This document shows positions 49,879 to 52,555 of a DNA stretch of 64,000 nt, piece by piece. A model generated the notes under the pieces. That model was not told where the DNA came from, ran no database searches, and saw nothing but the letters and a program-made list of their open reading frames with translations. Origin of the DNA: Escherichia coli (GTDB taxonomy: Bacteria > Pseudomonadota > Gammaproteobacteria > Enterobacterales > Enterobacteriaceae); NCBI RefSeq assembly GCF_003334335.1, contig NZ_QOWQ01000028.1, one strand, 5' to 3'. Within the stretch, counting starts at the first letter, position 1; each line of letters opens with the position of its first letter. The position numbers and the translations under genes were made by a program.

Positions 49879-49896
49879 GCCTACACCTGTAAGAAA
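49879..49896. promoter_or_regulatory. EvgA-box-like inverted repeat upstream of ydeP
   Basis: gCCTACAccTGTAAGAAa; the same extended motif recurs upstream of safA. Confidence 0.6.
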
Positions 49897-50138
49897 ATCC
49901 GCGCACAATTGAAGCCAGAGTCTTATTTTTTATATTGAAAAATATGTTAATTTAAACACTATGAGAGATGATGCTTAACTTATCGTATTTAATCTATTGT
50001 TTAACGATAATAGATTAAAAATAGAAAGAGAGTAGTCCCCTACTCTTATATATCCATGTTGGCGATAATCCCTTTGTATGTACTGTGCATCATCGCTATT
50101 ACAAATCCTAATAATTCATTTCCACACAGGATAAGTAG

Positions 50139-52418
50139 ATGAAGAAAAAAATTGAATCCTACCAGGGTGCTGCAGGTGGTTGGGGTGCTGTTAAATCCGT
50201 AGCGAATGCAGTACGTAAGCAGATGGATATACGCCAGGATGTTATTGCCATGTTTGACATGAATAAGCCAGAGGGCTTTGACTGTCCGGGTTGTGCATGG
50301 CCAGATCCTAAGCACAGTGCGTCATTCGACATTTGTGAAAACGGCGCAAAAGCAATCGCCTGGGAAGTCACGGATAAGCAGGTAAACGCCTCTTTCTTTG
50401 CTGAGAATACGGTTCAATCATTACTTACCTGGGGAGACCACGAGCTTGAGGCTGCGGGGCGACTCACTCAGCCTTTGAAATATGATGCCGTCAGCGACTG
50501 TTACAAGCCATTAAGCTGGCAACAAGCTTTCGACGAAATTGGCGCACGCCTTCAAAGCTATAGTGATCCCAATCAGGTTGAATTCTATACTTCGGGCCGC
50601 ACTTCCAATGAAGCTGCCTTTCTTTATCAGCTTTTTGCCCGTGAATACGGGAGCAATAACTTTCCCGACTGCTCCAACATGTGCCATGAACCGACAAGCG
50701 TGGGTTTGGCAGCGAGTATCGGTGTAGGTAAAGGGACCGTGTTGCTGGAAGACTTTGAGAAGTGCGATTTAGTCATTTGCATTGGGCATAACCCTGGTAC
50801 AAACCACCCTCGCATGCTGACTTCGTTGCGCGCTTTAGTGAAACGGGGAGCGAAAATGATCGCCATCAATCCTCTACAGGAACGTGGCCTGGAGCGATTT
50901 ACCGCACCGCAAAACCCGTTTGAAATGCTGACGAACTCTGAGACTCAGTTGGCCAGTGCCTACTATAACGTGCGCATTGGTGGCGATATGGCGTTGCTCA
51001 AGGGGATGATGCGCCTGTTAATTGAGCGCGATGATGCTGCAAGCGCCGCAGGTCGGCCTTCATTGCTTGATGACGAGTTTATTCAAACGCATACCGTCGG
51101 CTTTGACGAGCTACGCCGTGACGTTCTCAATTCCGAGTGGAAAGATATCGAACGTATTTCTGGACTAAGTCAGACACAAATCGCCGAACTGGCTGACGCA
51201 TATGCCGCTGCCGAACGCACCATTATCTGTTACGGAATGGGGATCACTCAGCACGAACATGGTACCCAGAACGTACAGCAACTGGTCAATCTGCTGTTGA
51301 TGAAAGGTAACATTGGCAAGCCTGGTGCGGGTATCTGCCCACTACGTGGACACTCTAATGTACAGGGCGACCGAACCGTCGGTATCACCGAGAAACCGTC
51401 TGCAGAGTTTCTGGCTCGTCTGGGTGAGCGCTATGGCTTCACCCCACCTCATGCACCTGGACATGCTGCAATTGCCAGCATGCAAGCAATATGTACGGGG
51501 CAGGCTCGAGCATTGATCTGCATGGGGGGCAATTTTGCGCTGGCAATGCCAGATCGGGAAGCGAGCGCTGTACCGTTAACGCAATTAGATTTGGCGGTAC
51601 ACGTAGCCACTAAGCTTAACCGCTCTCATCTGTTGACCGCACGGCATAGCTATATTCTGCCGGTCCTGGGACGTAGCGAGATTGACATGCAAAAAAACGG
51701 TGCGCAGGCGGTAACCGTTGAGGATTCAATGTCGATGATTCATGCCTCGCGTGGCGTGTTAAAACCCGCCGGTGTAATGCTGAAATCAGAGTGTGCAGTG
51801 GTCGCGGGAATCGCGCAGGCAGCACTACCCCAGAGCGTGGTAGCCTGGGAGTATCTGGTGGAAGATTATGATCGCATTCGCAATGACATTGAAGCTGTGC
51901 TGCCAGAGTTCGCCGACTATAACCAGCGCATCCGTCATCCCGGTGGTTTTCACCTGATAAATGCAGCTGCTGAAAGGCGCTGGATGACGCCGTCAGGTAA
52001 GGCTAATTTCATTACCAGCAAAGGGCTGTTAGAAGATCCCTCTTCAGCGTTTAACAGTAAGCTGGTCATGGCGACAGTACGCAGCCACGATCAGTACAAC
52101 ACGACGATTTATGGTATGGATGATCGCTATCGAGGGGTATTCGGTCAACGAGATGTGGTCTTTATGAGTGCTAAACAAGCTAAAATTTGCCGTGTAAAAA
52201 ACGGCGAAAGAGTTAATCTTATTGCGCTTACGCCAGACGGTAAGCGCAGCTCACGCCGCATGGATAGATTAAAAGTGGTCATTTACCCTATGGCTGACCG
52301 CTCACTGGTGACCTATTTTCCAGAATCGAATCACATGCTAACACTTGATAACCACGATCCATTAAGTGGCATTCCTGGCTATAAAAGTATTCCGGTTGAA
52401 TTAGAACCATCAAATTAA
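50139..52418 (+). CDS. ydeP: Molybdopterin-dependent oxidoreductase (formate-dehydrogenase-like), acid-resistance associated
   Basis: 759 aa ORF with N-terminal Cys cluster (CPGCAWPDP...C) typical of MopB-family enzymes. Confidence 0.85.
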
Positions 52419-52537
52419 TGCCTCTTCTCATTTCTTCTGCTGTCATCCGCACAGCAGAAGAATTCCTCATTGACTATTATTTCGCAATTTGCTCACATGG
52501 ATTAAATTAAACTACATACTATAAGATATAAACTTCT

Positions 52538-52555
52538 GCCTACAGCTGTAAGAAA
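52538..52555. promoter_or_regulatory. EvgA-box-like inverted repeat upstream of safA-ydeO
   Basis: gCCTACAgcTGTAAGAAa. Confidence 0.6.

Follow-up and report, generated by a model that had tools for sequence, protein, structure and literature searches.

Two promoters in Escherichia coli, that of ydeP and that of the safA-ydeO operon just beyond it, raise the question of how far their likeness goes: do they share a binding site for the regulator EvgA, a longer version of that site, or a larger piece of promoter? The question concerns a stretch of 64,000 nucleotides (nt) of E. coli DNA (contig NZ_QOWQ01000028.1, hereafter the window), in which a first-pass annotation had noticed an extended EvgA-type box upstream of both ydeP and safA. 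Taken as a whole, the observations are very probably best explained by two known EvgA operators, next to which the flank AA-N-TCCGC forms the beginning of a module of about 110 base pairs (bp) that is common to the two promoters.

The two boxes and the EvgA regulon

The 24-nt pattern GCCTACANCTGTAAGAAANTCCGC, which can be written as GCCTACA-N-CTGTAAGAAA-N-TCCGC, has exactly two matches in the window, at 49879-49902 and at 52538-52561, both on the + strand, and the count stays at two when up to three mismatches are allowed. Dinucleotide-preserving shuffles gave a mean of 0.01 matches, and none of 100 shuffles contained two. The occurrence of an extended box upstream of both genes was therefore borne out, and the same can be said of the distances of about 240 and 110 bp proposed for it, as 237 bp separate the end of the pattern from the ATG of ydeP (50139) and 105 bp separate it from the ATG of safA (52666). 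The first base of each copy had also been placed correctly; the last bases given (49896 and 52555) take in 18 of the 24 nt that the annotation itself had described. The canonical 18-bp box, TTCYTACA-NN-TGTARGAA, begins one base to the left of the pattern, and its first base is 261 bp from the ATG at ydeP and 129 bp from the ATG at safA, on the same strand.

This consensus was checked against the other boxes of K-12; our literature searches turned up no paper giving the sequence of the EvgA box. In MG1655, EvgA-type boxes are found in the emrK/evgA intergenic region (TTCTTACG-CC-TGTAGGAT), at frc (TTCTTACA-AC-TGTAAGAA, a perfect match), at yegR (TTCCTACA-TA-AGTAGGAA) and, in two copies, at yfdX. 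A weight matrix was built from these five boxes, with those of ydeP and safA excluded. On this matrix the ydeP box scored 18.2 bits and the safA box 21.0 bits, runner-up positions in either promoter region did not exceed 1.1, and 0.013% (1.3e-4) of the positions of the window reached 8 bits or more. Both boxes have the 8-2-8 inverted repeat with one or two mismatches, and both lie upstream of the promoter of a gene described in the literature as induced by EvgA. Moreover, both keep their half-sites and leave the spacer free to vary among the 11 E. coli sequences described below.

Transcription of ydeP is activated by EvgA (PMC11210196), safA-ydeO is an operon under EvgA regulation (PMC5706723) and every directly regulated gene is described as having an EvgA binding site (PMC4283999). 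A further paper states direct binding of EvgA at the safA-ydeO promoter with reference to Itou 2009 (PMC9496106), and another credits the EvgA-bound inverted repeats to Masuda & Church 2003 (PMC3720670). The fit to the 18-bp EvgA inverted repeat, proposed at the first pass, is upheld by the consensus match and by the independent weight matrix, and the proposed co-regulation of ydeP and of the SafA/YdeO branch by EvgA is supported by the box match together with the published regulation. In the work of Masuda & Church 2003 (Mol Microbiol 48:699) an 18-bp motif with half-sites 5'-TTCPyTACA-3' was reportedly defined, with gel shifts of EvgA on these sequences. Its sites are said to be those of ydeP, b1500/safA-ydeO, yegR, emrK, yfdX and yfdW/frc, and mutation of the repeats upstream of ydeP and of b1500(safA)-ydeO is said to have reduced or abolished induction. 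We consider with high confidence that the two boxes are the already-described EvgA operators of the ydeP and safA-ydeO promoters. Co-regulation by EvgA through these boxes is already textbook knowledge (Masuda & Church 2003; Itou 2009); the interpretation was right and is not new, because EvgA control of ydeP and of safA-ydeO has been published. The boxes as such add nothing to this, as EvgA control at this place has been accepted for two decades as the top of the exponential-phase acid-resistance cascade.

The upstream region of gadE contained no match to the EvgA consensus at up to three mismatches, and a match at the gadE locus, inside mdtE, was taken as chance. The sequence TTCTTTTAGATGCAAGAA, inside the ydeO coding sequence at 53479-53496, also matches the consensus with three mismatches; it is probably a chance occurrence, about 0.6 such matches being expected per window.

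A promoter module common to ydeP and safA

When the boxes are aligned in the direction of transcription, the AANTCCGC that follows the box at ydeP and safA is absent at emrK, evgA, frc, both boxes of yfdX and yegR. Its mirror image, GCGGA, is absent from the distal flank of the boxes at ydeP and safA. For these reasons the flank is not part of the palindrome, nor of a general EvgA motif: the box extended by AANTCCGC does not recur at the other EvgA boxes as a general recognition element would. The claim that conservation extends 5 bp beyond the box is true for the ydeP/safA pair; as a description of an extended EvgA motif it did not stand, since the likeness goes on ungapped for about 110 bp and the extension is missing at the other boxes.

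The aligned module has no gap, and reads AATCCGCGCACAATTGAAGCCAGAGTCTTATTTTTTATATTGAAAAATATGTTAATTTAAACACTATGAGAGATGATGCTTAAC at ydeP and ACTCCGCTCAGTACTGAAGCACCAGTCCTATTTCCTCTTTTCTCCAGCCTGTTATATTAAGCATACTGATTAACGATTTTTAAC at safA. The 86 positions that follow the 24-nt pattern include 47 in-register identities, against 23.7 +/- 3.9 in shuffles (z ~6). This value was attained by 0 of 200000 random AT-rich window pairs, and the best of the other registers gave 34. Upstream of the boxes the identity is at chance level (13/59). Once the box is removed, the local alignment between the ydeP and safA regions scores 46 against 20.5 +/- 3.1 (z = 8.2), and the remaining 20 pairs of the seven EvgA-associated upstream regions, treated in the same way, have z of 2.3 or less; collinear similarity outside the operator, with sharp boundaries, is therefore found in a sole pair among 21. 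In a gapped alignment the two regions stay alike until about +112 from the start of the box, with no significant similarity past +105.

The transcription start of ydeP can be placed from the published leader, which begins at -178 from the ATG according to a probe definition (PMC11210196). The implied start, A49961, is 83 bp past the first base of the ydeP box, so that the centre of the box falls at -74.5. Counted from this start, AANTCCGC occupies about -65 to -59 and TGAAGC occupies -51 to -46, followed at -42 to -33 by AGTC(T/C)TATTT, which is a poor -35 region. Candidate extended -10 elements are present in both promoters (Table 1). By register, the predicted start of safA is at about 52617-52620, with a leader of about 46-49 nt, and with the safA start placed in this way the spacing from box to start is identical in the two copies. 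An alternative ydeP promoter from a consensus scan, TTGAAG-16-TATATT at 49909-49936, was rejected as the main promoter. Transcripts from it would begin some 18 nt before the published leader does, and at the matching register safA lacks a -10 element. One dimer site upstream, combined with a weak -35 and a TG-extended -10, is a geometry that suggests activation from upstream through contacts with RNA polymerase.

Both promoters were aligned in 11 E. coli sequences, namely K-12, nine divergent or reference strains and one metagenomic contig. The half-sites vary only at their outer positions 1-2, and AANTCCGC is invariant at both promoters. The 2-bp spacer is variable (CC, CT or TC at ydeP, GC or GT at safA), as expected because the N positions are unconstrained. 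At position 2 of the ydeP box (49879) K-12 has G and nine of the ten other sequences have T, which gives ATCCTACA, nearer to the consensus; in these strains it is followed by a CT, TC or CC spacer (49886-49887). The zone from +18 to +60 has 2 polymorphisms in 42 sites at ydeP, the lowest density there, and 4 in 42 at safA, where the 60 bp preceding the box show high variability (18/60 sites). The region upstream of ydeP is unusually polymorphic for E. coli, with 1107 records being 90-95% identical over 351 bp. Identity to K-12 over 49850-49910 is found in 1743 of 5119 E. coli records, and within the box region most strains differ from K-12 at one to three bases. K-12 has a minority allele of the ydeP box (AGCCTACA-CC), and as most records differ at ydeP the identical left half-sites of the two boxes are a feature of the K-12-like lineage.

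We favour the explanation that the ydeP and safA promoters are one module present twice, flanking ydeP, because the similarity starts sharply at the box, is collinear without insertions or deletions, includes sequence that does not resemble a binding site, among it the early transcript, and is seen in no other pair. A single copying event would be the most likely, although unproven, origin of the two copies. Several points weigh against this explanation. A shared functional constraint, if strong, could equally maintain the likeness in register. Polymorphisms are not significantly depleted at the positions shared by the copies (Fisher p = 0.16, from 14 variable sites and therefore underpowered). 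The G shared at box position 2, considered at one point as evidence of common ancestry, was withdrawn, as most strains have T at ydeP. Moreover, the start of ydeP comes from a probe definition and that of safA from the register alone.

A downstream architecture common to all EvgA promoters is not claimed. There are in-register coincidences, such as TCYTATT at +43 in ydeP, safA and yegR and AGTCCT in emrK, yet without the box these pairs stay at z of 2.3 or less. The 12-mer ATTTAAACACTA is common to yegR (L003, 8330-8431, minus strand) and ydeP (49950-49961), in the region of the -10 and the start, with a 5-bp offset relative to the boxes. These two promoters also have GTATTTAAT in common, deeper in the leader, and their overall z without the box is a marginal 2.0. 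The sequence CTCTCTGATT is found at +40 after the frc box (L002, 15460-15484) and after the weaker yfdX box at 16501-16518 (L002, 16454-16478), on the minus strand. The promoters of frc and yfdX might therefore be another in-register pair within the EvgA regulon, but their overall z of 1.7 is not significant.

A cross-species scan of contigs with CCTACANCTGTAAGAAA, which is blind to the CT and GT spacer alleles, found at least 81 stretches. Among the matches listed nearly all are single chance matches in unrelated taxa, the E. coli and Escherichia representatives do not appear, and the AANTCCGC extension is present only in L029 and L046. The first of these (JARKOR010000108.1, a metagenome-assembled genome of 'Candidatus Nanosynbacter sp.') contains, at 2094-4769, both boxes with the 2659-bp spacing and a ydeP promoter identical to that of K-12, and among the matches listed it is the only one with two boxes 2659 bp apart. 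The second (USHE01000194.1, UMGS1713) has an E. coli-type box with the extension at 430-446. Both look like E. coli DNA mis-binned with non-Escherichia genomes.

Possible roles of the shared segment

The mechanism that we propose begins with mild acid, under which EvgS would phosphorylate EvgA, a regulator of the NarL family. A dimer of EvgA would then occupy the 18-bp inverted repeat, whose centre lies about 74.5 bp before the transcription start, and activate a sigma-70 promoter with a weak -35 and an extended -10. As an outcome, YdeP would be induced in parallel with the SafA (towards PhoQ/PhoP) and YdeO (towards GadE) branches. One EvgA-dependent promoter would have been copied across ydeP, the region from the box to the -35 having since been retained by selection.

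This last region could also be read in other ways. It is possible, though unlikely, that TCCGC...TGAAGC (+22 to +39) is a secondary EvgA site of low affinity, two helical turns downstream, where a second dimer would bind cooperatively in the direction of the -35. A box at -74.5 is too distant for direct contact with sigma, and a bridging dimer would be mechanistically sensible. Read by eye, the site matches the consensus at 9 of 16 positions in ydeP (CGCGCACA-AT-TGAAGCCA) and at 8 of 16 in safA (CGCTCAGT-AC-TGAAGCAC), about 4.5 being expected; on the weight matrix it ranks third among the 411 positions of the ydeP region, and the scarcity of polymorphisms between +18 and +60, at ydeP above all, fits such a site. 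However, its weight-matrix scores are negative (-1.7 bits at ydeP and -3.6 bits at safA, the latter outside the top 8 of its region), and the corresponding positions in frc (6/16) and emrK (5/16), also read by eye, are at chance level. Strain L090 has two substitutions inside TGAAG at ydeP, which also argues against a secondary site, and if the promoters share their ancestry the ydeP and safA sites are not independent observations.

Another common regulator might instead bind the shared blocks, be it a YdeO-feedback factor, PhoP, H-NS or an UP-like contact of the C-terminal domain of the RNA polymerase alpha subunit (alpha-CTD). The conservation from the box to the -35 across strains fits such a site, PhoP is reported to lower the activity of the safA promoter, and there is negative feedback by YdeO on safA-ydeO and indirectly on ydeP. 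We nevertheless regard this as decidedly improbable: the repression by PhoP is reported at safA and not at ydeP, neither a PhoP direct repeat nor another known motif was recognised in the shared blocks (by eye, with no formal scan), and the similarity, which takes in the -10 and the early transcript, is spread over about 110 bp instead of one block of the size of a site. A chance resemblance of two AT-rich intergenic regions, with no regulatory meaning, is hardly conceivable. Short palindromic A/T-rich words are indeed common in intergenic DNA, and the match with three mismatches in ydeO occurs at chance frequency; against this stand the two matches observed for 0.01 expected, the scores of 18-21 bits, the downstream z of about 6-8, the conservation in E. 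coli and the published EvgA dependence.

With known EvgA operators at the head of a module present twice, the novelty left over is small, and consists of the pair-specific module of about 110 bp and of the minority K-12 ydeP allele. The architecture from operator to start, free of insertions and deletions and common to ydeP and safA and to no other EvgA target, suggests promoter copying, and it provides a testable start for safA (52617-52620) and a segment between box and -35 that is possibly functional. The allele matters for motifs derived from K-12 only, as these under-represent T at position 2 for the ydeP site. A more speculative idea, which we hold to be rather unlikely, is that AANTCCGC-(N8)-TGAAGC functions as a second element in the two strongest EvgA promoters of acid resistance, for instance a cooperative secondary site 22 bp downstream, as for BvgA, and that, linked to this, the regulon grew by copying of promoter cassettes. 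If the secondary site were true, ydeP and safA-ydeO would differ from emrK, frc, yfdX and yegR in the threshold or steepness of their response to phosphorylated EvgA. If the linked idea were true, the EvgA regulon would have grown partly by copying of a whole cassette of about 110 bp, and not by boxes arising de novo.

The surrounding locus and comparison with known systems

The features of the locus are collected in Table 1. Many E. coli chromosomes match the DNA of the window at 100% identity, and the region is present in 5390 of 5426 complete genomes. The identities of ydeQ, ydeP, safA and ydeO come from 100% identity to annotated E. coli genomes, and the RefSeq annotation of an identical record gives this same gene order, all on the + strand. 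The wider window corresponds to the K-12 segment with the end of the Qin prophage, mar, lsr, hipBA, ydeQRST, ydeP-safA-ydeO and ydeNM-yddAB-pqqL. In an Rfam scan of the window the only matches over the gathering score were STnc560 (281 bits, 13679-13892) and IS009 (221 bits, 2086-2284), both unrelated to the boxes, and the ydeP-safA region had no match.

Table 1. Positions in the window of the boxes, their flanks, the promoter modules and the genes
Feature	Position	Strand	Basis
EvgA box of the ydeP promoter, AGCCTACA-CC-TGTAAGAA, 18-bp inverted repeat	49878..49895	+	2 mismatches to TTCYTACANNTGTARGAA; 18.2 bits
Promoter-proximal extension at ydeP, AATCCGC	49896..49902	+	same as the safA copy except at N; invariant in 11 sequences
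ydeP module copy: box, TGAAGC, AGTCTTATTT, extended -10, start and first ~30 nt of leader	49878..49990	+	ungapped in-register identity to 52537-52649
Candidate extended -10 of ydeP, TGtTAATTT	49945..49953	+	read from sequence; 8 nt upstream of the implied start
ydeP transcription start implied by the -178 leader	A49961	+	indirect
ydeP 5' leader, 178 nt, with hairpins at 49988-50019 and 50028-50047	49961..50138	+	RNA fold
ydeP coding sequence, putative oxidoreductase, acid resistance	50139..52418	+	RefSeq annotation of identical DNA
EvgA box of the safA-ydeO promoter, TGCCTACA-GC-TGTAAGAA	52537..52554	+	1 mismatch to consensus; 21.0 bits
Promoter-proximal extension at safA, ACTCCGC	52555..52561	+	pattern match; strain alignment
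safA module copy	52537..52649	+	alignment to the ydeP copy
Candidate extended -10 of safA, TGtTATATT	52604..52612	+	in register with the ydeP element, offset 2659
safA coding sequence, connector from EvgS/EvgA to PhoQ/PhoP	52666..52863	+	annotation
ydeO coding sequence, AraC-type acid-resistance regulator, co-transcribed with safA	52938..53699	+	annotation; operon per PMC5706723

The ydeP leader is predicted to fold at -40.5 kcal/mol, much more stably than shuffled sequences (z = -3.16), with hairpins of 14 bp and 8 bp. Divergent strains have a 5-nt insertion (ATACT/ATACC) and substitutions close to the first of these hairpins. Control of ydeP by RyhB is known in Shigella. As far as the modelled fold can indicate, the leader could be an element of post-transcriptional control.

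A perfect 12-bp inverted repeat, TTCTTCTGCTGT-CATCCGC-ACAGCAGAAGAA, is found at 52432-52462, 14 bp past the stop codon of ydeP and some 75 bp short of the safA box, with a loop that includes TCCGC. It is not followed by a run of T, and for this reason the terminator scan did not call it. It may be a 3' stem-loop of ydeP that fully or partly insulates transcription of safA-ydeO from that of ydeP.

Compared with the published EvgA motif, the two sites described here have the same 8-2-8 repeat, in the same genes of the same organism, with no difference at the level of the box. To our knowledge neither the asymmetric AANTCCGC flank nor the module of about 110 bp is part of that motif. The sister sites at emrK/evgA, frc, yfdX and yegR differ from ydeP and safA in having neither the flank nor the module.

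The two promoters are like class I sigma-70 promoters in having one upstream dimer site, a poor -35 and a TG-extended -10. Activators of that class contact alpha-CTD and centre near -61.5, -71.5 or -82.5, and the ydeP/safA box, at -74.5 from the inferred start, is 3 bp off the CRP-type position of -71.5. We know of no report of alpha-CTD dependence for either promoter.

EvgA has been described as BvgA-like (PMC9496106). Unlike the BvgA arrays, the ydeP and safA promoters have a candidate +22 site that scores below zero on the weight matrix. At the fha and ptx promoters of Bordetella the EvgA homologue BvgA occupies a primary inverted heptad repeat and secondary sites that are filled cooperatively towards the -35, and the core of its half-site, TTTCCTA, is similar to the TTCYTA of EvgA. 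As in the BvgA promoters, the primary site at ydeP and safA is far upstream (-74.5) and a conserved stretch continues from it up to the -35 region.

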